Source of the DNA: Pseudomonadota bacterium
GTDB lineage: Bacteria; UBA10199; 2-02-FULL-44-16; DYJF01
Length of the DNA stretch: 64,000 nt
Assembly (NCBI GenBank): GCA_043823065.1
Contig: JBDRBB010000025.1
Location: forward strand, 276-64,275
Reading direction: 5' to 3'
Part shown: positions 260-41,410 of the stretch, one piece after another
Position numbering within the stretch: the first letter of the stretch is position 1
Layout of the letters: each line of letters starts with the position of its first letter
Program-made: the position numbers and the translations under genes
The notes under the pieces: generated by a model
Told to the model about the DNA's origin: nothing
Database searches by the model: none
Seen by the model: only the letters and a program-made list of their open reading frames with translations

Positions 260-1624
260 TCAAGGACAATTAGGTCCAAATGTTACGTGGACCTTTGTCG
301 CTGCTGAGCAATGCCGCAAACCATAATTGTCATCATAAGCATAAGCATAGGTACTGTTATTGCACATGGCATGAATAGCAGTTACATAGCCATTGCTAGC
401 GCCTGGACCAGCGCGGCACTGGGCAGAAGTTACGCAAGTATCTGGATGGGCTTCGCACTCGGCATCAGTTGAATATGGTGTTGGGCAGCAATAAATAATT
501 GGCGGATCACTATCTTCAGCCAAGCCATAACCATCATAAGTGGGATAGTTAAATTTTTTGCACGGAGAATAGCAACCTATAATTGCATCTGAAGTATTTT
601 TAACCCGCAAATCAGCACTGGCATATTGCGGAAAGATTGTTCCGGTTCTGCCTTCGCTCAAGTTGGCTGTGGTTGGGCATTGATTAAAATCCAAACTTGA
701 ACAATCTACAGCTTCACACGGGGCGCCACTGTCAGTGGTAGTGTTGTCAGTAACACTGGTGGTAAAGGGAAGCGTATAACCATCAACCGCGCTCATGTTC
801 CAGTATGTATCGCCAATAACATTGCCTTGCGGTGTAGTGCCGCATTGACTTGCATTAGACAGCACACAACCCCAGGTTGATTCCAACTTGGAATCAACTG
901 GTGGCGGACAATTGGTACATGGATCAGAACTTTGACCAATAGTACAATTTTGCCCGCTGCCATCGCAACCAGTCTTGGGCCAGAATCTGGTGGAAGCCTG
1001 CCCGGCTTCAGGTATAGCCCACTCATGAGACTCTCCTGCATCTAACTTAACCACTGCTGGAACACTAGACGGCATATTTTGCTGCTGGATCCAGATAGCA
1101 TAGCTGCAATTGTTGGTTATTTTCAAACGCTCTGTTTGCGTACCTCCACCGCCTCCACCGCCACCACCAACTGTATTAAAAGAAGCTTGAAAACCCGCAA
1201 AAGCATTGCCATCTACCTGAATATCGCTGGTCAAACAAACCGTATATCCCCCACTACCAACCAAATCGCTAGCAGGAGTAAGATCAGCATAGCTGGCAGT
1301 TGGGGAATGAACAGCAGAAGTTACAGAAGCTGCTAAGGCATTACTTACATCGCATATTGCTGGATTAAATGTTGCTTTGGACATAGCTGCAAGATTGGCA
1401 GCTGCTGCAGGTGTTTCCACAATAAAAAAGGAAGCTGTGGTAATTGACGAATTTGCTACTGTTCCAGAAAAGGTATAGCGAAACGGCTCATTAACCGCCA
1501 CATCTGTCTGGCCATCAAGGGTGTTAACATCAACTACTGTAGTGGTTCCTCCTCCAGAACCTCCACCACAACTGCTGATCAACAAAATTGCCAGACTACT
1601 AATAATCAAATAATATTGCTTCAT
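260..1624 (-). CDS. secreted lipoprotein with a C-terminal thaumatin-like domain (osmotin/PR-5 family)
   Basis: Start corrected to ATG at 1624 (MKQYYLIISSLAILLISSCGGG) because a strong SD (aagggggat) precedes it; the lipobox Cys is followed by poly-Gly linkers. The C-terminal half has a thaumatin-type Cys pattern: NNCSYAIWI, W..TGCDGSGQNCTIGQ, and a C-terminal AYAYDDNYG...C...V.FGPNCP resembling thaumatin CPDAYSYPQDD..TFTC...Y.VVFCP. Confidence 0.6.
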   Translation of the reverse strand: MKQYYLIISSLAILLISSCGGGSGGGTTTVVDVNTLDGQTDVAVNEPFRYTFSGTVANSSITTASFFIVETPAAAANLAAMSKATFNPAICDVSNALAASVTSAVHSPTASYADLTPASDLVGSGGYTVCLTSDIQVDGNAFAGFQASFNTVGGGGGGGGGTQTERLKITNNCSYAIWIQQQNMPSSVPAVVKLDAGESHEWAIPEAGQASTRFWPKTGCDGSGQNCTIGQSSDPCTNCPPPVDSKLESTWGCVLSNASQCGTTPQGNVIGDTYWNMSAVDGYTLPFTTSVTDNTTTDSGAPCEAVDCSSLDFNQCPTTANLSEGRTGTIFPQYASADLRVKNTSDAIIGCYSPCKKFNYPTYDGYGLAEDSDPPIIYCCPTPYSTDAECEAHPDTCVTSAQCRAGPGASNGYVTAIHAMCNNSTYAYAYDDNYGLRHCSAATKVHVTFGPNCP

Positions 1625-1712
1625 ATATCCCCCTTTTTTGCTCACCTACTATAAGTACGCTATTAAATTTTAATTTTCAAATGAATACTTTTTCATAATA
1701 ATAGCAAGACTT

Positions 1713-2045: not shown

Positions 2046-3002
2046 TTAAATAGTTTTCCCAATCCAATAAATTTGATCATCAATCTTCTTTTGTTCAATT
2101 AACCCTTGCTCTTGTAATTTTTGCAAATATTTTATTACTTCGTTGGGATGTAAATTAAAAGTACGGGCAATCTGCTCAATAGTGCCTGGCCTGCGCTGAC
2201 ACATGCCTAAAATATCTTGCAGAGAACCTGCACTTTCAATCTGTCTATGCTTAGGAAACGAAGCTATAACTTCTGCCGGCGGTGTAAAACGCCTGGCAAT
2301 TTGCTCCATTTTTTCTTTGCTAACCGCTTGGCATATTACTTCTGCCGGCGGTCTGGATACAGTATTAAGTTGAACCTTGTCCGGCTCAATCAATTTGACA
2401 ATATCAACTAACTGAGCAATCTCTTTATCATTGTCATTTATTCCAACTAATAAAAAAATCTCCAGCCAGATCTTGCCAAAATATTCCTGCCTGAAAGCAA
2501 TTAAACCATCTTTCATTTGTTCAAAACTTACAGCTTGATGCGGACGATTAACCTGCTCGAAACTATCTACCGAACCTGCATCAAGAGAAGGAACGACCAG
2601 GTCGGCTTTAAGCAAAGCCTGACGCACTTGTTTTTGCCATAAAAGCGAGCCATTGGTCAGCACCGCCACCGGAATTTTGGTAAGCTTTTTAATGGCCATA
2701 ATTATTTCCGCCAAATCCGAATGCAAGGTCGGCTCACCTGAACCGGAAAGAGTAATATAATCTGCTTTAATACCTTTAGCTAAAATATCTTTTAGCTCGC
2801 TTAAAATATCTTGAACTGAAACATATTTTTTGCGCTCAACTGTTTTATCTGTGGTTAAGCCCAATTGACAATAAAGGCAATCATAACTGCAGGTCTTGTA
2901 AGGAACAAGATCAAGGCCCAAAGAACGGCCCAAACGTCTGGACAGCACAGGGCCATAAATATGTTTGTATTTTTTTTTAGTTTCAGATGGATTGTAAAAC
3001 AT
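2046..3002 (-). CDS. radical SAM protein with a C-terminal winged-helix domain
   Basis: N-terminal GPVLSRRLGRSLGLDL, then the CSYDCLYC (CxxxCxxC) radical-SAM cluster motif and a GSGEPTL glycine-rich SAM motif. The C-terminal IEQIARTFNLHPNEVIKYLQKLQEQGLI looks like a winged HTH. Confidence 0.7.
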   Translation of the reverse strand: MFYNPSETKKKYKHIYGPVLSRRLGRSLGLDLVPYKTCSYDCLYCQLGLTTDKTVERKKYVSVQDILSELKDILAKGIKADYITLSGSGEPTLHSDLAEIIMAIKKLTKIPVAVLTNGSLLWQKQVRQALLKADLVVPSLDAGSVDSFEQVNRPHQAVSFEQMKDGLIAFRQEYFGKIWLEIFLLVGINDNDKEIAQLVDIVKLIEPDKVQLNTVSRPPAEVICQAVSKEKMEQIARRFTPPAEVIASFPKHRQIESAGSLQDILGMCQRRPGTIEQIARTFNLHPNEVIKYLQKLQEQGLIEQKKIDDQIYWIGKTI

Positions 3003-3089
3003 TAAAATATTGACTCCATAAATTTAGAAACATATTAACATATGATCATAATCCGGTAAAGGCCCGTTGTTTAATTTTGGTTAACATAA

Positions 3090-3722
3090 ATGTTTAAAAC
3101 TATTTCTCTAGAATTAAAAAGGCATGCTCCTTTTACTTTTTTTGGCGCATTGACTGGCATAATTATTATGCTGTTTTGCCAAAAAATACCGCATAATCTT
3201 TCATATAATATATTCTATATACTTCATCCAATTCACGTTGTGCTTAGTGCTTTAGTAACAGCTTCTATGTATAAGCTACATAAATGTAAACGGATTGGAA
3301 CTAAATGTATAACCGGTAAATGCAATTTATGGATTTTAATTATTATTGGTTATACCGGTGCAATAGGCATTGCCACCATTAGCGATTCAATTATTCCATA
3401 TTTAGGAGAAACATTACTGAATATGCCCAACAAGGGTATCCATATTGGGTTCATTGAAAAATGGTGGCTGGTAAATCCCTTGGCCTTATTGGGCATTGCT
3501 ACTGCATTTTTTAAGCCAACCACAAAGATCCCTCATGCTGGCCATGTTTTGTCGAGCACTTGGGCCTCCTTATTTCATATTATTATGGCTATGGGGGCTG
3601 GGTTAAGTTGGTTTTCATATATCATTGTCTTTATCTTTTTATTTTTTTCTGTCTGGCTTCCTTGCTGCTTAAGCGATATTATTTTTCCTCTTCTCTTCGT
3701 TAAAGAACCCAAAAACACTTGA
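3090..3722 (+). CDS. polytopic membrane protein, function unknown
   Basis: 210 aa with about six hydrophobic helices and no recognisable motif. Confidence 0.45.
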   Translation: MFKTISLELKRHAPFTFFGALTGIIIMLFCQKIPHNLSYNIFYILHPIHVVLSALVTASMYKLHKCKRIGTKCITGKCNLWILIIIGYTGAIGIATISDSIIPYLGETLLNMPNKGIHIGFIEKWWLVNPLALLGIATAFFKPTTKIPHAGHVLSSTWASLFHIIMAMGAGLSWFSYIIVFIFLFFSVWLPCCLSDIIFPLLFVKEPKNT

Positions 3723-3770
3723 CTTTAGTTGCCATAATAGTTATAAACATATGTTCATAATGGAGTAAAT

Positions 3771-4103
3771 ATGGTCAGGCCGCACATAAATAGAAGGATT
3801 AGGGGGGAACCTGCTGTCACCTATTTTAAGCCCCAAGGTATCCCTTTAAGGGTATTGGAAGAAATCAACCTTACCCTGGATGGTTTGGAGGCTTTGAAGT
3901 TGGCTGACGAGCAAGGTCTATATCACGACGCAGCAGCTAAAAAAATGGGGGTTTCCCGCCCTACTTTTGGCAGAATACTTGCTCAAGCTAGAAAAACAGT
4001 TGCTACTGCAATTATTCAGGGAAAAGCGCTGCGTATTGAAGGTGGAGTCGTACAGCAGGTGCAACCACGTGGCTGCTGCCGACGAGGTTGGGGTAGATGG
4101 TAA
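3771..4103 (+). CDS. DUF134 (UPF0251) family putative DNA-binding protein
   Basis: MVRPHINRRIRGEPAVTYFKPQGIPL...LDGLEALKLADEQGLYHDAAAKKMGVSRPTFGRILAQARKTVA is the typical DUF134 sigma-70 region-4-like architecture. The C-terminal 20 aa may be read-through. Confidence 0.7.
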   Translation: MVRPHINRRIRGEPAVTYFKPQGIPLRVLEEINLTLDGLEALKLADEQGLYHDAAAKKMGVSRPTFGRILAQARKTVATAIIQGKALRIEGGVVQQVQPRGCCRRGWGRW

Positions 4104-4129
4104 ATTAATTTAAATAAAGGAGGTGTTTT

Positions 4130-4510
4130 ATGCCAAGAGGAGATGGAACAGGCCCAATGGGCCAAGGACCAAAAACAGGTAAAGCAATGGGCCATTGCGC
4201 TGGTTTTAACACACCTGGCTACTTGAATTCCGGACGAGGATTGTTCGGCGCCGGTCGTGGCGGCATGCCCTGGGGAGGCGGACGAGGCCGCGCTTGGGGA
4301 GGCGGCAGAGGCAGAGGTTTTGCCCAAGGCTTTGGCCGTGGGTGGAGTCCAGCACCAGCCTGTGATTATGGCTGGGATTATGCACCTCAACCCATCAGCC
4401 CAGAAGATGAACGCACTTACTTAAACGATCAATTAGTTTTTTTGGAAAAAGAAATTCAGGAAATCAAAAAACGCCTAGCTCAAATTGACGAAAAAAAGGA
4501 CAAAAAATGA
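4130..4510 (+). CDS. DUF5320 family protein (Gly/Arg-rich, C-terminal coiled coil)
   Basis: Starts MPRGDGTGPMGQGP, as the paralog at 4889 does. It has a GGRGRAWGGGRGRGF low-complexity segment and a C-terminal coiled coil (LEKEIQEIKKRLAQIDEKK). A strong SD precedes the start. Confidence 0.6.
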   Translation: MPRGDGTGPMGQGPKTGKAMGHCAGFNTPGYLNSGRGLFGAGRGGMPWGGGRGRAWGGGRGRGFAQGFGRGWSPAPACDYGWDYAPQPISPEDERTYLNDQLVFLEKEIQEIKKRLAQIDEKKDKK

Positions 4511-4866
4511 AAATATTAATTACAGCAACAGATAATTCATTAGATGCTCAAGTCGATCCGCGTTTTGGCCGGGCTAAGTTTTTTGCTGTTTATGAAACTG
4601 ATAATGATCAAGTTGAATTCATAAGCAATGAACAAAATCTAAATGCTGCCAGCGGAGCTGGAATTCAAGCTGGTTCAAATGCTGTTAAAACAGGAACAAA
4701 AGTTGTAATTACCGGCAACTGCGGTCCAAAAGCTTTTCGTACTTTAAATGAAGCAGGCATTAAAATTATTAGTGGAGCAAGCGGAACAATTAAAGAAGTG
4801 GCTGAAAAATTTAAGAAAGGTGAATACCAATACTCAACTGAAGCAAATGTTGAAGGACATTGGTAA
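4507..4866 (+). CDS. NifX/NifB-like dinitrogenase FeMo-cofactor biosynthesis domain protein
   Basis: MKILITATDNSLDAQVDPRFGRAKFFAVYE... and ...GNCGPKAF...AGIKII are typical of the small NifX/NafY-like family. The start overlaps the upstream stop (ATGA). Confidence 0.7.
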   Translation: MKILITATDNSLDAQVDPRFGRAKFFAVYETDNDQVEFISNEQNLNAASGAGIQAGSNAVKTGTKVVITGNCGPKAFRTLNEAGIKIISGASGTIKEVAEKFKKGEYQYSTEANVEGHW

Positions 4867-4888
4867 ACCTTAAATAATAGGAGGAACT

Positions 4889-5110
4889 ATGCCCAGAGGT
4901 GATGGTACCGGTCCATTTGGCCAAGGTCCAAGTGGTGGAGGCGGTGGTAGGGGAGCAGGCGGACGTGGTCGCCAAGGTGGTTTTGCCGCCGGCCCAGGCG
5001 GAGAATGTATGTGTCCAAAGTGCGGGCAAAAAACTGCTCACACTCGCGGCACTCCCTGTAACAGCATGAAATGCCCTAAATGCGGTACTTTAATGACTAG
5101 GTCTCTATGA
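4889..5110 (+). CDS. DUF5320 family protein with a C-terminal zinc ribbon
   Basis: MPRGDGTGPFGQGP N-terminus, a GGGGRGAGGRGRQGG tract, then two CPKCG motifs (a Cys4 Zn ribbon). A strong SD is present. Confidence 0.55.
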   Translation: MPRGDGTGPFGQGPSGGGGGRGAGGRGRQGGFAAGPGGECMCPKCGQKTAHTRGTPCNSMKCPKCGTLMTRSL

Positions 5111-5961
5111 TTATAACCATAGGAAGTGGAAAAGGCGGCACAGGCAAAACCACTGTAGCCACAAATCTTGCCTTGTGTCTGGAAAAACATAATATCCCGG
5201 TTCAATTTATAGACTGCGATGTTGAGGAACCTAATGCTAATCTGTTCCTAAAAGCAGATATTAAATCCAGAGAACCTGTAACAGTAATGGTACCAGAGAT
5301 AGATGAAAAACTCTGCATCCATTGCGATCAGTGTGCAAAGTTTTGCCGATTTAATTCTTTGGTAGTTTTTCCAGATAAAGTGCTGATATTCCCAGAAATG
5401 TGCCATTCTTGCCAGGGTTGTGTCATCATCTGCCCATTTGATGCCATAAAACCAAAACAACGAGCAATTGGCACAATCGAACTTGGGCAATTAAAGCAAA
5501 TGAAATTTGCCCAGGGCTTAATAAATATTGGTGAAGCCAGAGCCACACCAGTGATTGCCAAACTGCAATCCTTTATAGCTCCTAATCTAACAACTATTTT
5601 AGATGCGCCTCCTGGTACGTCTTGCCCATTTGTGGAAACACTTAAAAAAAGCGATGTGTGCGTATTGGTAACAGAGCCCACACCTTTTGGCTTAAACGAT
5701 TTGAAACTAGCAGTGGAAGTCACTGAAATCTTTAACATTCCCAGAGGTATAATAATTAATCGTTCTGATATCGGCGATGATCAAGTTGAAAAATACTGCC
5801 AGGAAAAACAAATTGAAATCTTAATGAAAATTCCACATGACCTGAAAATTGCCCAGGCCTATTCTAATGGCATCCCTATTGTTGAAGCATTACCTGAGTA
5901 TGAAAATAAATTTTTGGAGCTACATAAAAAAATAATTAAATTGAAAGAAAACAAGAGATGA
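5107..5961 (+). CDS. MinD/Mrp-family P-loop ATPase with a 4Fe-4S ferredoxin insert
   Basis: Deviant Walker A GSGKGGTGKTT. It has the CIHCDQCAKFC and CHSCQGCVIICP Fe-S motifs and the architecture of the '(4Fe-4S)-binding ATPase' family. Confidence 0.8.
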   Translation: MIITIGSGKGGTGKTTVATNLALCLEKHNIPVQFIDCDVEEPNANLFLKADIKSREPVTVMVPEIDEKLCIHCDQCAKFCRFNSLVVFPDKVLIFPEMCHSCQGCVIICPFDAIKPKQRAIGTIELGQLKQMKFAQGLINIGEARATPVIAKLQSFIAPNLTTILDAPPGTSCPFVETLKKSDVCVLVTEPTPFGLNDLKLAVEVTEIFNIPRGIIINRSDIGDDQVEKYCQEKQIEILMKIPHDLKIAQAYSNGIPIVEALPEYENKFLELHKKIIKLKENKR

Positions 5962-6851
5962 CCAAAACCATTGTCATAATTAGCGGCAAAGGCGGCACTG
6001 GCAAAACCAGCATAACAGCTTGCCTGGCCCTTTTAGCCAAAAAAGCTGTTCTAGCAGATTGCGATGTGGATGCTGCTGATCTTCACTTATTGCTTTCACC
6101 TAAAATTCAGGAAGAAAAACCTTTTATAAGCGGAGAACAAGCTTTGATTGATCCTGAAAAATGCATTAATTGTGATAAATGTCGCCGGGCTTGCACCTTT
6201 TCGGCTATTAATGAAACTTATGCTGTTAATCCAATCGATTGCGAAGGCTGTGCAGCTTGCACCCTTGTCTGTCCAGTAAATGCTATCACCATGATTCCAA
6301 GTGAGTGCGGCAAATCTTTTATTTCAGAAACCAGGGCCGGCCCCATGGCTCATGCCAAACTTTTTCCAGGAAAAGAAAACTCCGGAAAACTTGTTTCCTT
6401 GGTCAGATCAAAAGCTCAAGAATTAGCCAAGCAAAATAATGCTAATTTTATTCTGGTAGATGGACCACCAGGAGTTGGTTGCCCGGTTATTGCCTCAATT
6501 GGCAATACAGATATTGCCTTAATTGTTACTGAACCAACAGTATCTGGAGTTCACGATTTAAAACGTGCCCTGCAATTAACTCAACATTTTAAAATTAATT
6601 CTGCAGTACTTATTAACAAAAGCGATATCAATGAACAAATCTCAACAGAGATTGAAGATTTTTGTAATTCTCAAAATATAATAATTGCCGGCAAAATTCC
6701 TTATACAACCGAGTTTGTAAAAGCTCAACTTGCCGGCCAAACCATAATCGAATACATAAAAAAGGAGAACAAAGATGAAGATAGCTATACCCCTAGCCAA
6801 CGGCAAATTATCACTGCATTTCGGTCATTGCGAGAATTTTGCTTTAGTTGA
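5958..6851 (+). CDS. MinD/Mrp-family P-loop ATPase with a 4Fe-4S ferredoxin insert (paralog)
   Basis: GKGGTGKTS Walker A plus CINCDKCRRAC and CEGCAACTLVCP. The start overlaps the upstream stop. The 3' 77 nt overlaps the next gene, so the tail may be over-called. Confidence 0.8.
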   Translation: MTKTIVIISGKGGTGKTSITACLALLAKKAVLADCDVDAADLHLLLSPKIQEEKPFISGEQALIDPEKCINCDKCRRACTFSAINETYAVNPIDCEGCAACTLVCPVNAITMIPSECGKSFISETRAGPMAHAKLFPGKENSGKLVSLVRSKAQELAKQNNANFILVDGPPGVGCPVIASIGNTDIALIVTEPTVSGVHDLKRALQLTQHFKINSAVLINKSDINEQISTEIEDFCNSQNIIIAGKIPYTTEFVKAQLAGQTIIEYIKKENKDEDSYTPSQRQIITAFRSLREFCFS

Positions 6852-7113
6852 AGTGGATGAAAAACAGAAACAAATTATAAATAAGGAAATATTAGCTGCC
6901 CCACCTCACGAACCTGGCTTATTACCGCGCTGGCTTGGTGAAAAAGGAGCTAATGTAATTATTGCTGGCGGCATGGGACAGCGCGCTCAAACATTATTTG
7001 CCCAGCAAAAGATTAAGGTTTTTGTTGGAGCAAGTTCAGCAACTCCAGAAGAGATTGTTGAAGCTTATCTTAACGATGCTCTTATTTCAGGGACAAACCT
7101 TTGCGATCATTAA
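6775..7113 (+). CDS. NifX/NifB-like dinitrogenase FeMo-cofactor biosynthesis domain protein
   Basis: MKIAIPLANGKLSLHFGHCENFALVEVD... and ...IIAGGMGQRA are classic motifs of this family. Confidence 0.7.
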   Translation: MKIAIPLANGKLSLHFGHCENFALVEVDEKQKQIINKEILAAPPHEPGLLPRWLGEKGANVIIAGGMGQRAQTLFAQQKIKVFVGASSATPEEIVEAYLNDALISGTNLCDH

Positions 7114-7140
7114 GTCAGCTTTACATTAGTAACTTGAAAA

Positions 7141-7995
7141 TTGATGCATAAGCTAATATTACATTTAACAATTTTATTGATAGTAACTATAATTATATGT
7201 TTGACTGTGCGTCAACATTCGCTTTTAAAATCTAATAATGTGAGCTTAGAAAAAATTAATTCAATGAAAAATAATCAGCAATCAAAGATTAAAATTACTA
7301 TTGTTTATGACAATAATGCTTATAACCCAGAGCTAACTACGGCCTGGGGATTTGCCTGCATCATTGAAATGCCCGAGCAGACGATTCTTTTTGATACAGG
7401 CGAAGATGGCCGCATTCTTCTTGAAAACATGGGAAAAATGGGGATTACCCCTCAAAAAATCGATATGGTTTTTCTTTCCCATATTCACAGTGATCATACT
7501 GGCGGTTTGATTGATTTACTCAAGCAAAATTCTAAAATAAGCGTTTATTACCCTCACTCCTTCCCAGAAGTTTTTGAACAACAAATTACAGCTTTGGGTG
7601 CTAAAGCAAAGAAAGTTGATCTTCCTCAAGAGATTGCCCCTAATATCTTTACCACTGGCGAAATGGGAGGGTTAATCAAAGAACAATCATTGGTTATTAA
7701 AACCAATAAAGGGCTATTGATAATAACCGGCTGTTCACATCCGGGCATTGTCAAAATAATTAACCAAGCAAAAAAAATCACTCAGGCCAAACCATATTTA
7801 GTAATCGGCGGTTTTCATCTAAGAGATGCTTCTACTGTTGAATTGAACGCAATTATTAATGATTTCAAATTGGCCGGAGTTAGAAAAGTAGGCCCAGCAC
7901 ATTGTTCTGGGCAACAAGCAGGTGCTTTATTTAAGAAGGCTTTTGGCAACAACTATATTCCTGCTGGCGCAGGCACTGAAATAAACATATACTAA
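7141..7995 (+). CDS. MBL-fold metallo-hydrolase with an N-terminal membrane anchor or signal
   Basis: HIHSDHTGG (the HxHxDH zinc motif), later His/Asp residues, and an N-terminal hydrophobic segment. Confidence 0.7.
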   Translation: MMHKLILHLTILLIVTIIICLTVRQHSLLKSNNVSLEKINSMKNNQQSKIKITIVYDNNAYNPELTTAWGFACIIEMPEQTILFDTGEDGRILLENMGKMGITPQKIDMVFLSHIHSDHTGGLIDLLKQNSKISVYYPHSFPEVFEQQITALGAKAKKVDLPQEIAPNIFTTGEMGGLIKEQSLVIKTNKGLLIITGCSHPGIVKIINQAKKITQAKPYLVIGGFHLRDASTVELNAIINDFKLAGVRKVGPAHCSGQQAGALFKKAFGNNYIPAGAGTEINIY

Positions 7996-8015: not shown

Positions 8016-9359
8016 ATGACAAAAAAAAACTTTGATATAATTATTGTTGGAGGAGGACCAGCTGGCATAATCAGCGGGGTTACAGCTAGAAAATATTATC
8101 CAGATAAAAGCATTTTACTAATTAAAAATGTAGCACAAGGTGTAGTCCCTTGCGGCATACCATACATGTTTTCAACTCTAAATAAACCCGAAGACAACGC
8201 TATGGGCGACGCTCCTTTGCAAAAAAATAAAATCGATTTTTTAGTGGATGAAGTAGTTGATCTAAAAAAAGATGAACATAAAATTGAAACAAAACTTGGC
8301 AATAGTTTCTCTTATCAAAAACTTGTCTTAGCCAATGGCTCTAATCCAATAATACCGCCGATTAAAGGATTGGATAAAAATGGAGTGTATGCAATTCATA
8401 AAGATATGCCCTACTTAAAGGAATTAAAAAATAAAATAGGTAGTGCTAAAAATATAGTGATCATTGGAGGCGGTTTTATTGGAATTGAGTTTGCTGATGA
8501 ACTTTCTAATATCAACAATTTAAACGTTCATTTGGTTGAAGTCTTACCACGGCTGTTAATGAATTCTTTTGATCCAGAATTCAGCAAAATGGTAGAAACT
8601 AAATTAGAAGAAAAAGGAGTTAAGCTTATATTGGGCAAAAAAGTCGTAGAAATAATTGGAAAAGAAAAAGTAAAAAAAGTTAACTTAGATGATAACAACA
8701 ACATAAAGGCTGATCTAATAATCCTCTGCATTGGCGCAGCTCCAAACATTAAACTTGCAGAAAAAGCCGGTTTGGAAACCATTAAATCTGGCATTTGTGT
8801 TGATGAATACATGAGAACCAGCGATAAAAATATCTTTGCCGTAGGCGATTGTGCAGGAAAAAAAGATTTTTTTACCAGGAAAATATTACCAGTAATGTTA
8901 GCATCCACAGCCACAGCCGAAGCAAGAGTAGCTGGAGCAAATCTTTTTCAGCTTAAAGTTGTACGTGAAAACAAAGGAACCATTGCTATCTATTCAACAT
9001 ATGTAGATGGATTAGTATTGGGCTCAGCCGGCTTAAGTGAAACAGCAGCTACTAACGAAGGCTTTGAAATAGTCAAAGGAACCGCTGAAGTGCCAAGCAA
9101 ACACCCAGCCAGCTTGCCCAATACAGAAATGATTAAAGTAAAACTTATTTTTTCCAAACAATCAGAGGTTCTCATGGGAGGACAAATAAGTGGAGGAATA
9201 ACTGCAGGAGAAATTATTAACAGTATTGGTTTAGCCATTCAGCAACGGGTTTCTTTAACTGAATTGGAAACACTGCAAATGGCTACGCATCCACATTTAA
9301 CAGCTCCGCCTACTCAATATCCATTAGTATTAGCAGCTCAAAATACACTAAATCGGTAG
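8016..9359 (+). CDS. FAD-dependent pyridine nucleotide-disulfide oxidoreductase (NADH oxidase / CoA-disulfide reductase family)
   Basis: IIIVGGGPAGI FAD fold, a GVVPCGIPY redox-active single-Cys motif like SxxxCGLPY of Nox/CoADR, and a second Rossmann IVIIGGGFIGIE. Confidence 0.75.
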   Translation: MTKKNFDIIIVGGGPAGIISGVTARKYYPDKSILLIKNVAQGVVPCGIPYMFSTLNKPEDNAMGDAPLQKNKIDFLVDEVVDLKKDEHKIETKLGNSFSYQKLVLANGSNPIIPPIKGLDKNGVYAIHKDMPYLKELKNKIGSAKNIVIIGGGFIGIEFADELSNINNLNVHLVEVLPRLLMNSFDPEFSKMVETKLEEKGVKLILGKKVVEIIGKEKVKKVNLDDNNNIKADLIILCIGAAPNIKLAEKAGLETIKSGICVDEYMRTSDKNIFAVGDCAGKKDFFTRKILPVMLASTATAEARVAGANLFQLKVVRENKGTIAIYSTYVDGLVLGSAGLSETAATNEGFEIVKGTAEVPSKHPASLPNTEMIKVKLIFSKQSEVLMGGQISGGITAGEIINSIGLAIQQRVSLTELETLQMATHPHLTAPPTQYPLVLAAQNTLNR

Positions 9360-9394
9360 ACACTAGTACCTATTTGTTTGTTTTAAGCACGTTT

Positions 9395-15728: not shown

Positions 15729-16301
15729 ATGTCTTTTCTCAACGAAAAAACCAAAGAAATTAATTACAAAGTATTATATTACGGTCCAGCTTTAGCTGGC
15801 AAAACCACCACGTTGCGCCAAATCTATCAAAAAATTAATCAAAAATCCAAGGGACAGATAATTTCTGTGGCTGATACTAACAACAATACCTTGTATTTTG
15901 ATTTTATTCCACTCACCTTGGGCAAGGTTAAGCAATATCAAGTGCACCTTCATTTATATAGCGTACCAGATGACTTAGCCTATAAATCTGCCCAAAAATT
16001 AATCGCTAAGGGAATTGATGGTGTAGTTTTTGTGGCAGATTCACAACTGGAAAAAATGGAAGCTAATTTGGAAAGCATGAAAAAACTTCAAGAAATTCTG
16101 ATTCATGAAGGTGTTGATCTAGGCCAAATACCCATGGTCATACAATATAACAAACGTGACCTGCCAGAAGCTGTACCGCTAGCAGAAATGCAAAAATTGC
16201 TAAATCCCAACCAAAATGCAGAATTTGAAACAATCGCTACTAGCGGCACAGGTATCTTGGAAACCTTGCAGGAAATTAGTAAAAAAGTGCTGAAATCTTA
16301 A
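15729..16301 (+). CDS. mglA: MglA-like Ras-family small GTPase (mutual gliding motility protein A homolog) with both catalytic residues substituted
   Basis: Gapless alignment to M. xanthus MglA over the first 90 residues: MSF.N...EIN.K..YYGP.L.GKTT...IY, TLYFDFIPLTLG, FVADSQLEKMEANLESM, IQYNKRDL (NKxD). No mglB lies adjacent. Confidence 0.8.
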   Translation: MSFLNEKTKEINYKVLYYGPALAGKTTTLRQIYQKINQKSKGQIISVADTNNNTLYFDFIPLTLGKVKQYQVHLHLYSVPDDLAYKSAQKLIAKGIDGVVFVADSQLEKMEANLESMKKLQEILIHEGVDLGQIPMVIQYNKRDLPEAVPLAEMQKLLNPNQNAEFETIATSGTGILETLQEISKKVLKS

Positions 16302-31593: not shown

Positions 31594-32534
31594 GGATTGT
31601 CACTCATATCCAAGTGCCTGGACTTAAAACCATAACCCATTACATCGCTAACTTCAGTTAAGATGATAAATGCATCTGGATCAATTTTACGCACCCAATC
31701 TCTTAAAATATTGGTCTGCCGGCGATTGATTACGCACATCACAATCTTTTTCTTTTTATGAGAATAGGCCCCTTCACCATAAAAATAGGTTACTCCCCTA
31801 CCTAATTTATCCATTAAAGATTCAGCAATTTCTTCTGACTTGTCGGTAATGACAAAAACCCCTTTAGTATAGGGCAAACCTTCTGCAGTTAAATCGCAAA
31901 CCTTGGAAGCTAAAAATAAATTAAAAAGTCCCCAAATAATTATATTGGGATTTTTAAAAACAATGCCAATGAGAAAAATAATTCCGGTTTCAATTACCAA
32001 ATAACCAGTGGTGATGGACATATTGTAATATTTTTTTAGAATGGCCACTGGAATATCTGTGCCGCCAGTGGAACCTTTTGCCCTAAAGATAATCCCGATT
32101 CCAGCGCCTAAAAGAATTGAACCAGCCAGAGCAGCCAGCAAGATATTGTCAGTCATAGCCCACTCGTGTATGGGCTTGCCCTGATTATACTGCTCTAAAA
32201 TTTTCTGCATAAAACTCAGCTTATAAATATTTTTTACCGCCAATAAATCAGTAAACACTGAGCCTAACAAAAATCCAGTAAATGTGCCCATACCGAATTG
32301 TTTACCAACCAACCACACGCCCAAAACAAACAAAGGGATATTCATGGCTAGCATACACACACCAGCAGGAATGCCAAAAAAGTGATAAAAAATCTGGCTT
32401 AAACCACCAACGCCGCCTGGCGCAATTTTATAAGGAATTAAAAACCAGGCATAACCCATGCCGTAAATAATGGAGCCAATTATAATACCAATAGAATTGC
32501 GAATAAAGTGTCGGTGATGAATAATATTTAACAT
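31587..32534 (-). CDS. YitT-family membrane protein (DUF161 + DUF2179)
   Basis: GYAWFLIPYKIAPGGVGGLSQI (YitT N-terminal motif) and a C-terminal DUF2179 soluble domain. Confidence 0.7.
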   Translation of the reverse strand: MLNIIHHRHFIRNSIGIIIGSIIYGMGYAWFLIPYKIAPGGVGGLSQIFYHFFGIPAGVCMLAMNIPLFVLGVWLVGKQFGMGTFTGFLLGSVFTDLLAVKNIYKLSFMQKILEQYNQGKPIHEWAMTDNILLAALAGSILLGAGIGIIFRAKGSTGGTDIPVAILKKYYNMSITTGYLVIETGIIFLIGIVFKNPNIIIWGLFNLFLASKVCDLTAEGLPYTKGVFVITDKSEEIAESLMDKLGRGVTYFYGEGAYSHKKKKIVMCVINRRQTNILRDWVRKIDPDAFIILTEVSDVMGYGFKSRHLDMSDNPH

Positions 32535-33817
32535 ATTTCCTCACTAGTATTTAAGGTTTGGTCAGACAACATTTCATCTTGTCTAGAAACTTTACGGCGA
32601 AATCTTTTTACAATAATAATCGTGATATATATCCAAACTAGGCACAAAACTAAAATCAACCAGGTGGTCAAGCTTTCAGCATGCAAAGCAATCAGACCCA
32701 TTAATAGAACAGATACGCCCACCTTGGCCAGGCGATACATAAACATATCAATAATAGACTTGCCCTGGGTTTTTTCCACATAACTAAGTGGGATATAAAG
32801 CATCTCTCTGGCAAATTTATAAATACTATAATCAAAACATTTACTGGCTACTTTCAAACCTGCGCCAGTCATAAACAAAGGCACAATGGCAAAAATTCCC
32901 ACGCCAGAACCCAGCAAGACCGGCACTATTAAAAGCACCAAAGGTACGCCAGCAAGTCTTAGCACTGGGCCGGTTAAAATATTTAGACCCATGGTTGCTA
33001 TTTCAATTACTGCGTAAACAATGCCAATCATGCGCGTGCGCTGATCCAAATCGGCAAAAGCTTGTTCCAGAATGCCGTTAAATTCAAAATCAATTAAGGT
33101 AATCACCAGCTGCACTAACAACACCAAGAGCAAAATCAAAGAAAGATATGAACTTTTTCTCATCACACCTACTGCATCTCTTAAGTGCACTGTTTTTTCC
33201 TGCTGATGATGCACCACTTCACCACTAGCAACCTTGGCAAAAAACAGACAAAAAACCCAACTGATCAGAAGAATAGGTACAATCAACCAAAGCAAGTGTA
33301 GGCTACCAAAATATGCTGCTAAATAACCAACCGCCAGGTTTCCCAAAAAAGCGCTACTAGAAGCCATGACTCCAAAAAAACCATAAGCCCAACGCGCGGT
33401 TTTAATGGGAAATACCGAATTGGCAAAACTATAAAAAATTACCACCAGAACTACAATGTAAATATCTTTCCAAACATACAGGGCATAAAAACTTCCCGGC
33501 AGTTTATACTGGCAAGCTAAAATCATACCTACTAACAAGATAGCGCTGATCGCGCAAACATTACCCATCAAGTGCATTAAATCCATGCGCGCCAAGTTGC
33601 GCACATAAATCCAAAGGGTTAAAAACATACCCAAGCCGACAAAAAACCAAACCTGCGGCAAAGCCTTGCTAGTATGGACTTGCAAAAATAAAGATTCAGT
33701 AGCTGGACGCGCCAAAGAATAGGTTAACAAGAGTATAAAAGCCAAAAAACTTAAGCCTGCAAAGCGAATTTTCTTTAAGATTTGGGGATTTTTTAGATCC
33801 ATAATTGCCAGTTGCAT
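32528..33817 (-). CDS. 12-TM transporter, possibly TLC/NTT (ATP:ADP antiporter-like) family
   Basis: 429 aa with about 12 TM helices. The N-terminal LTYSLARPATESLFL resembles the TLC-family F-N-Y-T-I-L-R-D-T-K-D-x-L block. The family assignment is tentative and it could be a divergent MFS. Confidence 0.35.
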   Translation of the reverse strand: MQLAIMDLKNPQILKKIRFAGLSFLAFILLLTYSLARPATESLFLQVHTSKALPQVWFFVGLGMFLTLWIYVRNLARMDLMHLMGNVCAISAILLVGMILACQYKLPGSFYALYVWKDIYIVVLVVIFYSFANSVFPIKTARWAYGFFGVMASSSAFLGNLAVGYLAAYFGSLHLLWLIVPILLISWVFCLFFAKVASGEVVHHQQEKTVHLRDAVGVMRKSSYLSLILLLVLLVQLVITLIDFEFNGILEQAFADLDQRTRMIGIVYAVIEIATMGLNILTGPVLRLAGVPLVLLIVPVLLGSGVGIFAIVPLFMTGAGLKVASKCFDYSIYKFAREMLYIPLSYVEKTQGKSIIDMFMYRLAKVGVSVLLMGLIALHAESLTTWLILVLCLVWIYITIIIVKRFRRKVSRQDEMLSDQTLNTSEEIC

Positions 33818-40141: not shown

Positions 40142-41410
40142 TTAAAGTTGCCCCCTTTCAATCTTATATTTTTTGATTTTCCGATACAATGTGGCCAAAC
40201 TCATATTAAGAGATTTGGCCGCATGTTTATAATCATCTTTATTGGTACGCACAGCTTTTTCAATAATCATTTTTTCGTATTCATCTACGCTTAAATTCTT
40301 GTCAACTGGGCAATGGTTTTCCATCAGAGAGCTGGCTGCTGATGTTAAATCATCCAAGGTAATAATTTGGCCCTTGCCAATAGCAATGGCTCCTCTAATA
40401 GCATTTTCTAATTCTCTGACATTTCCTGGCCAGTCATATTGATAGAGAATTTTCATCACCCTGGGCTCTACAGAATTAATCTTTCTGGTTTCAGGTTGAA
40501 ATTTTTGGACAAAATGTTCCACCAAGAGCGGTATATCTGCCCTTCTTTCTCTTAAAGGTGGAATGCGCAAAGACACAACATTAAGCCGATAAAACAAATC
40601 TTCCCTGAATTTTCCCTGCCTAACTTCTTCTTTTAAATCTCTATTGCTGGCAGCAATGATACGCACATCAACCTTCTCCATTTTTTCGCTGCCAACCGGA
40701 GTAACTTCTCCTTCCTGAATAGCCCTCAGTAGCTTCACCTGCAAGGCTAGAGGAATTTCGGATATTTCGTCCAAAAAAATGGTGCCATTATTGGCCAGCT
40801 GAAACAAACCTTTTTTATCCCGATGCGCGCTAGTGAATGAACCTTTTAGATGGCCGAACAATTCGCTTTCAATCACCCCTGGCGCAAAAGCAGCGCAGGA
40901 AACAGGAATAAACTTAGTGTCTTTGCGCAAACTGCTAAAATGAATAGCCCTGGCCACCAATTCTTTACCTGTACCGCTTTCACCTTGAATTAAAACATCT
41001 GCTTCACTGCTTGACAACCTGTTAATGAGATTAAACAAGCGATACATTTGTTCTGAACTGGCAATGATGTTTTGACAACAATCTTCATCGTGAAAGGAAA
41101 ACTCTTCTTTTTGATAAGACAAACTTTGATCCAGAGTTGGTTCAGCTACTCCAGCAATTAAGTTAGCCAAACTTTCAGCAGTGGCTTGAGCTGATTTAAG
41201 CAAACACTTTATTTTATCTTGCTGCTGATCGGTTAAATTAAGGCTGTCATCATTCAAAAGCTCATTGGCATAACGCATCACTGAATTTAGCTGTTTTTGC
41301 ACTTCACCTGACAAACCTTTGACCACTGTATGACTATATGCGGGTGACATACTTGCTTGGTTTTTTTCCATAAGTGTGCTAATGCTAATGCATTCTTTTT
41401 TATTTAGCAA
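40142..41410 (-). CDS. sigma-54-dependent transcriptional activator (bEBP) lacking a receiver domain
   Basis: AAA+ core with Walker A GESGTGKE, ESELFGH, an Arg-finger region and a C-terminal Fis-type HTH (LATLYRKIKKY). The GAFTGA loop reads GSFTSA. The N-terminal 130 aa has no REC or GAF signature. The ORF-track TTG start is uncertain; the ATG at 41371 or 41350 is more likely. Confidence 0.8.
   Translation of the reverse strand: MLNKKECISISTLMEKNQASMSPAYSHTVVKGLSGEVQKQLNSVMRYANELLNDDSLNLTDQQQDKIKCLLKSAQATAESLANLIAGVAEPTLDQSLSYQKEEFSFHDEDCCQNIIASSEQMYRLFNLINRLSSSEADVLIQGESGTGKELVARAIHFSSLRKDTKFIPVSCAAFAPGVIESELFGHLKGSFTSAHRDKKGLFQLANNGTIFLDEISEIPLALQVKLLRAIQEGEVTPVGSEKMEKVDVRIIAASNRDLKEEVRQGKFREDLFYRLNVVSLRIPPLRERRADIPLLVEHFVQKFQPETRKINSVEPRVMKILYQYDWPGNVRELENAIRGAIAIGKGQIITLDDLTSAASSLMENHCPVDKNLSVDEYEKMIIEKAVRTNKDDYKHAAKSLNMSLATLYRKIKKYKIERGQL

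Follow-up and report, generated by a model that had tools for sequence, protein, structure and literature searches.

What does a run of seven genes that encodes two NifX-like proteins and two ferredoxin-bearing ATPases do for its host? The genes lie in a 64,000-nucleotide stretch of a Pseudomonadota genome (the window). The first-pass annotation of this DNA had treated the cluster as an undescribed unit; in our comparisons it matches a cluster that is known in Desulfovibrio as orp (orange-protein-complex). We lean towards the reading that the locus is an orp-type operon, in a single-operon form controlled by DUF134, with a mechanism of iron-sulfur storage and trafficking. Handling of iron-sulfur material is the job that we infer to be most likely. 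What the Orp proteins do has been termed 'still unclear' (PMC8359166). The new element is a conserved palindrome, a likely DNA switch, ahead of an orp-type cluster.

Organization of the cluster

All seven open reading frames were present, tightly packed and co-directional, as first annotated (Table 1). Three junctions have 4-nt overlaps of the ATGA type (4507/4510, 5107/5110 and 5958/5961), the genes for ATPase B and the Di-Nase protein overlap by 77 nt (6775-6851), and the remaining gaps are 22-26 nt. The overlapping starts and stops suggest translational coupling.

The family assignments held for six of the seven proteins in Pfam. The DUF134 protein scored 81 bits (cut-off 27), the 126-aa protein 82 bits with DUF5320, and the first and second NifX-like proteins 86 and 79 bits with Nitro_FeMo-Co. 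Both ATPases matched the CbiA/ParA and Fer4 families. The exception was the 73-aa protein, which had been called a second DUF5320 paralogue. It did not match Pfam DUF5320 even at E 0.5, and in a profile-profile comparison residues 1-21 alone aligned with that family (probability 96.5%).

Table 1. Features of the cluster and its flanks, in window coordinates
Feature	Positions	Strand	Basis or remark
Radical SAM protein, 318 aa	2046-3002	-	Pfam Radical_SAM, 71 bits
Second promoter/operator copy: TTGACT 3010-3015, N17, TATTAA 3033-3038, palindrome ATTAACATATGATCAT 3034-3049	3010-3049	+	
Membrane protein, 210 aa, polytopic, His- and Cys-rich, uncharacterised family	3090-3722	+	
Sigma-70-like promoter: -35 TTGACT 3719-3724, 17-nt spacer, -10 TATAAA 3742-3747	3719-3747	+	Sequence inspection
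Operator-like palindrome ATAAACATATGTTCAT	3743-3758		Overlaps -10 box and likely transcription start
Cluster of seven genes	3771-7113	+	ORF list
DUF134 (UPF0251) helix-turn-helix protein, 110 aa, pI 10.6	3771-4103	+	Pfam DUF134
DUF5320 protein, 126 aa	4130-4510	+	Pfam DUF5320
Orange-protein-like (ORP-like) NifX-fold protein (IPR003731 domain), 119 aa	4507-4866	+	Nitro_FeMo-Co
Cys6-His protein, 73 aa	4889-5110	+	Alignment of homologues
ATPase A, MinD/Mrp/NifH-class P-loop, 2x[4Fe-4S] ferredoxin insert	5107-5961	+	CbiA/ParA and Fer4 families
ATPase B, same architecture as ATPase A	5958-6851	+	CbiA/ParA and Fer4 families
Stand-alone Di-Nase (NifX-like), MrpORP C-terminal-domain type	6775-7113	+	NCBIfam MrpORP NF041136
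Metallo-beta-lactamase-fold (MBL) protein	7141-7995	+	Pfam Lactamase_B; 27 nt downstream of cluster

The cluster resembles the orp genes of Desulfovibrio

The best PDB match of the first NifX-like protein is 2WFB, the orange protein (ORP) of D. gigas (E 4.9e-18); TM1290 and MTH1175 come next (E 1.4e-13 for the latter). This protein is 37% identical to D. gigas ORP and slightly nearer to a sister group. The second NifX-like protein scores 137 bits against positions 265-364 of the NCBIfam model MrpORP (NF041136), that is, the Di-Nase domain, and bears the HFGHCE and C-terminal CDH motifs as described (PMC6345978). Of the sequences compared, 97% retain its H15, H18 and C19 and 89% its C110. We favor an orp identity because of these two matches, because the ATPases have the features published for Orp3 and Orp4, and because the order small protein-ATPase-ATPase mirrors orp5-orp4-orp3.

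The two systems have in common an orange-protein-like protein with a single NifX-fold domain, a pair of neighboring paralogous MinD-like ATPases that carry two [4Fe-4S] motifs apiece, a small Cys-rich protein encoded immediately upstream of that pair and a Di-Nase domain with the HFGHCE and CDH motifs, and both occur in lineages typical of anaerobic habitats. They differ in that the genes here form one co-directional operon rather than two divergent operons, and in that the sigma-54 promoter, the OrpR palindrome and the adjacent enhancer-binding protein of D. vulgaris are absent; in their place stand a sigma-70-like promoter and a palindrome linked to DUF134. In addition, the Di-Nase protein is free-standing, with no Mrp/NBP35 domain within 64 kb, a DUF134 gene is present, as is a DUF5320 gene ahead of that for ORP, and the ORP-like protein has diverged to the extent given above.

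The proposal that the cluster arose as a tandem duplication of a module does not fit the identities. ATPases A and B are 32% identical to each other and the two NifX-like proteins, which belong to separate old subfamilies, 29%. In contrast, orthologues of ATPase A and of ATPase B are separately conserved, each at 55-84% identity, and the supposed DUF5320 pair shares just 21 residues.

The ATPase pair

Judged by their sequences, ATPases A and B are ancient paralogues, and in other genomes A always comes before B. ATPase B is likely the heterodimer partner of ATPase A. Conservation (given for ATPase B) reaches 99-100% for the eight ferredoxin cysteines, C117 and C175, and 84% for C236. With the dimeric SIMIBI proteins that bind or transfer Fe-S clusters (Mrp/NBP35/ApbC, Cfd1-Nbp35 and NifH/BchL/CfbC) the pair shares a deviant Walker A (GKGGTGKT in ATPase A), the signature lysine and an invariant Cys near Switch II, and the arrangement as paired paralogues is reminiscent of Cfd1-Nbp35. 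Unlike those proteins, the cluster ATPases have an inserted two-cluster ferredoxin domain that separates strand 2 from the remainder of the P-loop fold, an insertion for which we found no counterpart among solved structures. They lack the CXXC bridging motif of the Mrp type and score far under the cut-off of every curated family. In D. vulgaris, Orp3, Orp4 and Orp8 co-purify, and MrpORP passes Fe-S clusters to them in vitro (PMC6345978).

The DUF5320 protein and the Cys6-His protein

The DUF5320 protein consists of an N-terminal MPRGDGTGPMGQGP motif, a cationic segment rich in Gly, Arg and aromatic residues, and a C-terminal helical, coiled-coil-like segment. Residues 1-90 contain 28 Gly, 10 cationic, 11 aromatic and 9 Pro residues and have a pI of 10.5. 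A similar tail, Pro-rich and then Gly/cationic/aromatic with a pI of 10.7, is found on IssA of Pyrococcus furiosus (PF2025), which stores iron-sulfur as thioferrate; MTH1175 was assigned to the IssA clade, and 'IssX' is an uncharacterised clade (Vaccaro 2017, PMC5524996). The likeness to the DUF5320 segment is compositional. Like IssA, the ORP-like protein, which matches MTH1175, is an IPR003731 domain protein without Cys ligands. Among relatives, domain and tail also occur in one chain, with a DUF5320-type tail and coil fused C-terminally to NifX-like domains in L001, L050, L084 and L031. Here, however, the tail is a separate upstream gene whose product has an additional motif at its N-terminus and a coiled coil at its C-terminus, and paired ferredoxin-ATPases are not part of the descriptions of IssA. 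By this analogy, the DUF5320 and ORP-like proteins together look like a split iron-sulfur storage protein of the IssA type, with putative thioferrate binding.

The 73-aa protein, small and cationic like the DUF5320 protein, has the 21-residue N-terminal motif, a disordered Gly/Arg-rich segment and a small Cys6-His domain. This domain replaces the Cys4 zinc ribbon that had been suggested: C40, C45, H51, C57, C62 and C65 are invariant in 30 homologues, and C42 is retained in at least 90% of them. In an AF2 model the pLDDT was 84-90 for residues 39-73 and below 60 for residues 1-38. All matches in a fold search were zinc-ribbon or rubredoxin-like and non-significant. By position, the protein may be the counterpart of Orp5 (order orp5-orp4-orp3; PMC8359166).

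A conserved palindrome upstream of DUF134 genes

The promoter of the cluster was missed by a consensus scan because the scan demands T at position 6 of the -10 box. A GGAG (3762-3765) lies 5 nt ahead of the DUF134 ATG. The same design, TTGAC(T/G)-N17-TATNAN, is found upstream of DUF134 in L089, L091 and L009. Overlapping the -10 box, the palindrome ATAAACATATGTTCAT matches 11 of 12 core positions of a family consensus, ATGnnCATATGnnCAT. There are just two such sites in the window, and the two promoter/operator copies form a 28-nt repeat (82% identical); the second copy sits between the divergent radical SAM and membrane-protein genes.

In other genomes, 19 of 25 sites that match at least 11 of 12 positions fall in the 1.3% of sequence directly upstream of DUF134 domains; the enrichment there is about 57-fold. 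Matches at 14 or more of 16 positions lie upstream of 18 of 70 DUF134 domains, compared to 0.8% of control regions. Since many genomes have this palindrome across the -10 box ahead of their DUF134 genes, DUF134 is likely an autoregulating repressor of the operon. The palindrome could also be recognised by some other regulator. The DUF134 protein, which has weak HTH_23 and Sigma70_r4_2 matches besides Pfam DUF134, is 86% identical to its L089 orthologue. DUF134 is fused to an ORP domain in 39 of 80 loci and to Cys6 domains in other genomes. These fusions to ORP, together with the conserved palindrome, make the earlier suggestion of a local regulator plausible.

Conservation of the neighborhood

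We sampled 80 loci, from species-level genomes of several phyla and archaea, by orange-protein similarity alone. ORP-ATPase A-ATPase B was kept in 63 of them, and in 56 a second NifX-like (Di-Nase) gene came after the ATPase pair; DUF134 was present in 40. The same seven genes form the cluster in L089, a near-identical cluster is present in L091, relatives have it at 69-88% protein identity, and a Pacearchaeota genome has an archaeal version. Further fusions connect the components (NifX-DUF5320, NifX-Cys6 and Mrp-DiNase). Conservation thus goes far beyond chance, as had been predicted.

The commonest extra neighbor with a known function was the scaffold IscU/NifU (NifU_N/IscU immediately downstream in 23 of the 80 loci). 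L091, L002 and L004 have ferritin, EncFtn plus ZIP, and NifU among the neighbors. No client enzyme recurs near the 80 loci, be it a Mo/W enzyme, nitrogenase, hydrogenase or CODH. Of the metallocluster system with a client that was first proposed, the cluster-handling role agrees with the work on MrpORP (PMC6345978) and the client found no support.

Proposed function and alternatives

In an orp-type operon of this form, DUF134 would bind the palindrome at the -10 box and repress the operon, and in this genome also the divergent radical-SAM and membrane-protein promoters, with the ORP or Cys6 domains perhaps sensing cluster load for it. The ORP-like protein and the Gly/Arg/aromatic segment of DUF5320 would work as a split IssA/IssX protein that holds an anionic, non-covalently bound metal-sulfide species, either thioferrate-like Fe-S or a linear Mo-Cu-S cluster as in D. 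gigas ORP. A heterodimer of ATPases A and B, with ATP and four [4Fe-4S] clusters, would load, reduce or release this material, and the Di-Nase and Cys6 proteins may be carriers or acceptors of clusters. Overall, the module would store and traffic Fe-S (metal-sulfide) material and not mature one dedicated enzyme. Counted against Fe-S handling are the cell-shape defects of D. vulgaris orpR mutants. The metal of native D. gigas ORP, Mo-Cu and not Fe, also counts against it.

In another hypothesis, said to be that of Fievet (2011 and 2015), the two MinD-like ATPases would position the septum or partition DNA in anaerobes that have no Min proteins, with the metal clusters as redox sensors only. The closest sequence match of the N-terminal P-loop region is archaeal MinD (1G3Q, 1ION and 1HYQ), which also shares the fold. 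However, ApbC, HypB-type Mrp and NifH equal or exceed MinD in fold score, the fold does not separate MinD from metallocluster ATPases, and the scores are far under the MinD family cut-offs (70 versus 201.75 and 56 versus 212.9). MinD has no counterpart of the invariant ferredoxin insert or of the additional invariant Cys, no MinC or MinE context was seen around the cluster, and the conserved partners are NifX-fold proteins, often with IscU/NifU, rather than division genes. The cluster is found in a DPANN archaeon, too. We consider a role in division unlikely. About equally improbable is that the ORP-like protein binds a thiomolybdate-copper cluster and that the system serves molybdopterin enzymes by buffering or delivering Mo/W, or by detoxifying Cu/thiomolybdate. 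Native D. gigas ORP does bind [S2MoS2CuS2MoS2]3- non-covalently (cited in PMC6345978), and, in keeping with this mode of binding, a comparison of 93 sequences shows no conserved Cys, His or ligand residues in the ORP-like protein. In a study of A. fulgidus, a part in supplying molybdopterin enzymes with cofactor was proposed (PMC3949148), and the best matches of the neighboring radical SAM protein are MoaA and a tungsten-cofactor maturase. Those matches are generic (53-55 bits versus cut-offs of 284-380), mod, moa, moe and molybdoenzyme genes are neither recurrent in the 80 neighborhoods nor present among the scanned window ORFs, and the neighbors that do recur are Fe-S related.

NifX/NafY-like carriers next to a NifH-like ATPase might also be a remnant or variant of nitrogenase FeMo-co maturation, a reading that is close to refuted and that we hold very improbable. 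The NifX equivalog scores 20 bits (cut-off 112) and NifB 16 (cut-off 344), the C-terminal half of the ATPase has no significant alignment to NifH, and nifHDK and nifENB are absent from the scanned window ORFs and the 80 loci. The earlier statement that this is not a nif operon stands: no nif genes were found among the Pfam-scanned window ORFs of at least 150 aa. Adjacency by chance, or a recent local duplication without common function, could be imagined from the paralogous pairs within the cluster, and is next to inconceivable. It is refuted by the 80-locus synteny across phyla and archaea and by the domain fusions, and the overlapping starts and stops and the age of the paralogues argue against it as well.

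Flanking genes

In this genome only, the 210-aa membrane protein probably belongs to the same regulon. It has no Pfam or NCBIfam match and no homologue in L001-L092, its family has 377 representatives in 1.84 billion proteins, and its longer relatives have sub-threshold similarity to ZIP. The radical SAM protein is a recurrent neighbor of the DUF5320/ORP-sister module: it is 57% identical to a gene adjoining the cluster in L091/L092, and homologues adjoin tailed NifX-like, Cys6 or DUF5320 genes in L004, L031, L050, L052 and L084. The MBL gene is possibly co-transcribed with the cluster; there is no terminator-like site in 7113-7141. Its product is 48% identical to that of an MBL gene divergent from DUF134 in L091/L092, and homologues are also found in L004, L050, L074, L082 and L083.

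Relationship to the orp gene cluster

We found that the seven-gene cluster very likely belongs to a known kind, the orp (orange-protein-complex) cluster of Desulfovibrio. Four features point to this: a match to the orange protein (ORP, or Orp8), a match to the Di-Nase domain found in MrpORP (Orp9), a pair of ATPases like Orp3 and Orp4, and a gene order that mirrors that of the Desulfovibrio cluster. The first-pass annotation had presented the cluster as an undescribed unit, and its interpretation held up only in part. The ORF listing placed the seven co-directional, tightly packed genes exactly where that annotation had put them. Pfam searches bore out its assignments of the DUF134 protein, the 126-aa DUF5320 protein, both Nitro_FeMo-Co proteins and both ATPases, but not that of the 73-aa protein to DUF5320 (see table).

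The best match of the ORP-like protein in the PDB was the D. gigas ORP (2WFB, E 4.9e-18); TM1290 and MTH1175 ranked lower. It was 37% identical to D. gigas ORP (79 bits) and slightly closer (~45% identity) to a sister group that coexists with canonical ORP in some genomes. Like Orp8, which binds its cluster non-covalently, it is a single-domain IPR003731 protein without Cys or His ligands; no Cys, His or other ligand residue was conserved across 93 sequences. The Di-Nase protein scored 137 bits against positions 265-364 of the NCBIfam MrpORP model, for which the whole-protein cut-off is 450. Its HFGHCE and C-terminal CDH motifs, conserved in 74 sequences, are those of the MrpORP Di-Nase domain described by Pardoux et al. 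(PMC6345978). MrpORP combines an Mrp/NBP35 domain with Di-Nase. In contrast, the Di-Nase domain stands alone here, and we found neither an Mrp/NBP35 domain nor a third MinD/Mrp-type gene in the 64-kb window. Fused MrpORP does occur in one of the comparison loci (L001).

Orp3 and Orp4 are MinD-like paralogues with two [4Fe-4S] ferredoxin motifs each (PMC6345978). ATPases A and B match them as adjacent paralogues, each with two CxxCxxCxxxC(P) motifs, all invariant. The D. vulgaris operons are orp5-orp4-orp3 and orp7-orp8-orp9 (PMC8359166), and the window has the corresponding orders small Cys protein-ATPase-ATPase and (small protein)-ORP.

The cluster differs from the orp genes of Desulfovibrio in its control sequences. 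The latter have sigma-54 promoters, the enhancer-binding protein (EBP) OrpR encoded between divergent operons, and an OrpR palindrome, GGGCGYRTTTTGCGCCC. None of these is found at the window cluster. The OrpR palindrome was absent from the window at up to 3 mismatches, and no exact copy was present in any of 93 loci. Matches to the sigma-54 -24/-12 pattern in the window were at chance level, with none upstream of the cluster. The window has a sole EBP gene at a distance of 36 kb, and we found no link between it and the cluster.

Features of the cluster and its surroundings. Positions are in the window unless a comparison locus is named.
Feature	Position	Strand	Remarks
461-aa protein	260-1645	-	Lipoprotein-like N-terminus, poly-Gly linkers, Cys-rich C-terminal half
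Radical SAM gene	2046-3002	-	57% identical to gene beside cluster in L091/L092; generic MoaA-like matches only
Palindrome copy	3034-3049		Between radical SAM and membrane-protein genes
Membrane protein, 210 aa	3090-3722	+	His/Cys-rich; carries the cluster's promoter/operator design; no family assignment
Palindrome copy	3743-3758		Upstream of DUF134
DUF134 protein	3771-4103	+	Pfam PF02001 (UPF0251), 81.4 bits, residues 2-94; gathering threshold 27
DUF5320 protein, 126 aa	4130-4510	+	Pfam PF17253, 82.3 bits; gathering threshold 27 bits
ORP-like NifX-fold protein, 119 aa	4507-4866	+	Pfam Nitro_FeMo-Co, 86 bits
73-aa Cys6-His protein	4889-5110	+	Residues 1-21 homologous to DUF5320 family (profile-profile)
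ATPase A	5107-5961	+	Pfam CbiA/ParA and several Fer4 families
ATPase B	5958-6851	+	Pfam CbiA/ParA and several Fer4 families
Di-Nase (second NifX-like) protein	6775-7113	+	Pfam Nitro_FeMo-Co, 79 bits
MBL-fold gene	7141-7995	+	48% identical to gene beside cluster in L091/L092
Arf-family small GTPase	15729-16301	+	
TLC-type ATP/ADP translocase	32528-33817	-	
Sigma-54 EBP	40142-41410	-	Unassigned 114-residue N-terminal domain
Ste24-type CAAX protease	41425-42654	+	
Palindrome in relatives	L009 ~2370-2390; L089 ~7600-7620; L091 ~7685-7700		Also in many others

Gene boundaries, the 73-aa protein and the ATPases

Three junctions in the cluster are 4-nt start/stop overlaps and one is a 77-nt overlap; the remaining gaps are 22-26 nt. 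The long overlap (6775-6851) joins the 3' end of the ATPase B gene to the start of the Di-Nase gene in different frames. It also occurs in L089, one of the nearest relatives, and is absent in the related locus L091, in which a single nucleotide separates the end of B from the ATG of the Di-Nase gene. The part of ATPase B encoded in the overlap is not conserved. Runs of GGN codons for Gly/Arg-rich segments (4190-4340 and 4930-5010) make the DNA locally G-rich, with a GC skew of +0.10 at 4001-6000. These runs also open long antisense ORFs (e.g., 4016-4390, minus strand), which are almost certainly not genes.

The 73-aa protein falls outside Pfam DUF5320 because it had no match even at E 0.5 and its homology is confined to the first 21 residues. 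When the profile of its family (30 sequences) was compared with that of the DUF5320 family, only residues 1-21 aligned (probability 96.5%), over the common N-terminal motif MPRGDGTGPxGxGPxTGRxxG. It had also been described as a Cys4 zinc ribbon, which does not agree with its conserved residues: six are invariant (C40, C45, H51, C57, C62 and C65), and a further one, C42, is present in at least 90% of homologues. In the AF2 model the N-terminal half is disordered and residues 39-73 form a confident small domain, for which Foldseek returned no significant structural match. An identical sequence is annotated as a hypothetical protein in an NCBI MAG labelled 'Pseudomonadota bacterium'. In Desulfovibrio, the small Fe-S protein Orp5, a homologue of the [2Fe-2S] protein Dde_3197, is encoded first in orp5-orp4-orp3. 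By position, the 73-aa Cys6-His protein is equivalent to Orp5.

The Walker A sequence of the two ATPases, GKGGTGKT, is the deviant form of dimer-forming SIMIBI ATPases. In each, all eight ferredoxin cysteines are invariant, as is a cysteine located seven residues past the Asp of Walker B (C173/C175). Conservation extends to C231 in A and to C117 and C236 in B. We found no solved structure with a ferredoxin insert in this fold. When the ATPase was aligned to NifH to test the Switch II cysteine, only the P-loop region aligned and the C-terminal half was not significant. We regard the parallel with NifH at the Switch II cysteine as a lead.

Conservation of the cluster

We used D. gigas ORP as the sole query to collect 80 species-level loci, mostly from Thermodesulfobacteriota and also from Nitrospirota and Chloroflexia, and then searched the ORFs of these loci with the window proteins. 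Since the query was ORP alone, the conservation test was blind to the neighbouring genes. Neither D. vulgaris nor D. alaskensis was represented among the loci retrieved by the scan of the genome collection.

The neighbourhood is conserved, as the first-pass annotation had supposed. ORP, ATPase A and ATPase B were contiguous in 63 of the 80 loci, and in 56 the Di-Nase gene came next after this trio. The order A then B was invariable in the loci examined. DUF134 was present in 40/80 loci; 39 have it as a DUF134-ORP fusion and 24 also have a free copy. DUF5320 was present in 13 and the Cys6 protein in 10. All seven genes were found in L089 (73-88% identity), and six to seven in L091 and L092 (69-75% identity). 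A Pacearchaeota chromosome encodes DUF5320, DUF134-Cys6, Cys6, ORP, A and B, and a deltaproteobacterial MAG has NifX, ORP-DUF5320, fused MrpORP, A, B and Cys6.

The paired genes had been read as a tandem module duplication. We rejected a recent one: the proteins with the DUF5320 motif have only 21 residues in common, and the paralogues are old. ATPases A and B are 32% identical, and A has thousands of relatives at 50% identity or more; orthologues of A score 207-316 bits to A and ~90-155 bits to B, with the converse for orthologues of B. Identity between the two NifX-like proteins is 29%, and they belong to separate old subfamilies.

Nor did a client enzyme emerge for the metallocluster assembly or insertion that had been envisaged. 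No client metalloenzyme turned up when all ORFs from the 80 loci were clustered in an unbiased way, and no Mo/W enzyme, nitrogenase, hydrogenase or CODH recurred near the cluster. Several apparent families were antisense-ORF artefacts of crude gene calling. Of the extra neighbours, the most frequent were a receiver-like protein (35/80) and a NifU_N/IscU scaffold just downstream (23/80). Among L009-L088, the NifU_N/IscU-like gene and the receiver-like gene (~126 aa, conserved FHEASEGLG motif) often lie on the same strand as the cluster, ~0-1.5 kb 3' of the Di-Nase gene; neither is in the window.

A candidate operator upstream of DUF134

A consensus scan for promoters and terminators gave no enrichment. 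By reading the upstream DNA directly and comparing genomes, we found a promoter, TTGACT-17 nt-TATAAA (3719-3747), followed by CATATGTTCATAA, GGAG and the start codon of DUF134. The design recurs as a 28-nt copy (82% identity) at 3033-3060, in the region that separates the divergent radical SAM and membrane-protein genes. Only these two window sites reach at least 11/12 core matches to the palindrome consensus ATGnnCATATGnnCAT. In L089, L091 and L009, the DNA upstream of DUF134 retains the -35/-10/palindrome arrangement although the flanking DNA has diverged; L009 is from a Desulfovibrio sp. with an ORP 94% identical to that of D. gigas.

The palindrome is concentrated upstream of DUF134. Within 220 nt upstream, 18 of 70 DUF134 domains had a site with at least 14/16 matches, compared to 0.8% of 2,800 control regions; at 12/16 or better, the figures were 43/70 and 2.7%. 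In 1.13 Mb, 25 sites matched at 11/12 core positions or more, and 19 of them fell within the 1.3% of the sequence upstream of DUF134 domains. Among ORP loci without DUF134, just two showed 12/12 upstream of ORP and the others had 10/12 or fewer. The palindrome differs from the Gram-positive LexA (Cheo) box in that its GAAC/GTTC positions vary and ATG..CATATG..CAT is fixed.

The simplest reading of these sequences is that DUF134 binds ATGnnCATATGnnCAT and autoregulates. The site overlaps the -10 box, and DUF134 is therefore probably a repressor. In other genomes DUF134 is fused to an ORP domain or a Cys6 domain (confirmed with Pfam), which suggests that these domains supply its signal. The palindrome upstream of DUF134 genes and the fusions make it plausible that DUF134 is the local regulator, as had been proposed. 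We found no functional data on DUF134 or DUF5320 in the literature; the palindrome gives these uncharacterised DNA-binding proteins of the DUF134/UPF0251 family a defined candidate operator. The proposed regulation of the cluster through this promoter and palindrome is new here.

The DUF134-ORP fusion in 39/80 loci is a single ORF of ~240-260 aa (e.g., 8626-9381 in locus L011 and 3134-3865 in L009; others in L009-L088). Based on these ORFs, many Desulfobacterota may encode the classical orange protein as the C-terminal domain of a protein that binds DNA.

A possible role in iron-sulfur storage and trafficking

The ORP complex is among the most widespread conserved anaerobe gene sets without an assigned function. 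The window adds no new kind of system; the comparison gives a concrete operator and an analogy to a storage protein. IssA stores thioferrate in Pyrococcus furiosus, assembling into Fe-S nanoparticles, and has a tail that is Pro-rich and then cationic, aromatic and Gly-rich, with a pI of 10.7 (PMC5524996); the same paper mentions an uncharacterised glycine-rich 'IssX' clade. The DUF5320 protein of the window is alike in composition (residues 1-90: 28 Gly, 10 Arg/Lys, 11 aromatic, 9 Pro, pI 10.5), and this link to the IssA-type tail is a testable handle. IssA and IssX have an IPR003731 domain and a long cationic Gly/aromatic tail in one chain. In contrast, the ORP-like protein is tailless, and the IssA-tail-like segment is encoded by the separate, adjacent DUF5320 gene, with fused forms in relatives. 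Several ORP-sister proteins consist of a NifX-like domain, a Gly/Arg-rich tail (pI 9.6-12) and a coiled coil, which is the window ORP-like protein and DUF5320 in one chain. The lack of a conserved ligand residue in the ORP-like protein fits non-covalent binding of an anionic cluster.

We tentatively suggest that the cluster encodes a module for Fe-S (metal-sulfide) storage and trafficking, driven by the A/B heterodimer. The more specific notion that orp-type clusters are ATP-driven stores and dispensers of inorganic iron-sulfide is speculative and, in our view, unlikely. Under that notion, DUF5320 would act as an IssA-like cationic tail, in trans or fused, wrapping a linear anionic metal-sulfide chain on the ORP domain. 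The ferredoxin-ATPase heterodimer would load or mobilise this chain. DUF134 would sense the filling state via the ORP/Cys6 domains and, at the ATGnnCATATGnnCAT operator, repress the operon. The Fe-S ligand would be the physiological one, and the Mo-Cu cluster known from the classical orange protein would merely resemble it chemically.

Other roles are improbable. The idea of a role of the ATPases in cell division rests on phenotypes in D. vulgaris and is a poor fit with the conserved partners and the ferredoxin inserts. ATPases A and B scored 70 and 58.5 bits with minD_arch (cut-off 201.75) and 38.9 and 56.4 bits with minD_bact (cut-off 212.9), and there was no MinC among the scanned window ORFs (150 aa or more, above the size of MinE). 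A role in Mo/Cu chemistry, proposed for A. fulgidus (PMC3949148) and in keeping with the native cluster of D. gigas ORP, seems to us just as improbable; Mo/W genes do not recur nearby. The lack of a dedicated client and the frequent IscU/NifU linkage favour general Fe-S handling over both cell division and molybdenum chemistry.

A nif role is the most remote of these, and we rejected it on equivalog scores and gene context. The NifX score was 20.4 bits against a cut-off of 112 and the NifB score 16 against 343.65. There were no nif genes among the scanned window ORFs of 150 aa or more or among recurrent neighbours, and no linkage to nifHDK or nifENB. The first-pass annotation had likewise concluded that this is not a nif operon.

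Genes around the cluster

Radical SAM and MBL-fold genes recur beside the cluster (5810-7631 in L091; 1983-5389 in comparison locus L004), above all where it includes tailed NifX, Cys6 or DUF5320 genes. The 210-aa membrane protein belongs to a small family (377 representatives in 1.84 billion), the longer relatives of which have only sub-threshold similarity to ZIP transporters. It has no homologue in L001-L092 and is specific to the neighbourhood in the window genome. Neither Pfam nor NCBIfam gave a match for the 461-aa protein.

The rest of the window contains housekeeping genes, with some signs of a host-associated lifestyle. The translocase, Arf GTPase and CAAX protease occur together on one bacterial contig, a set that hints at a life in association with a host or inside cells. 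If true, this would be an unusual setting in which to find an 'anaerobe-specific' orp cluster.
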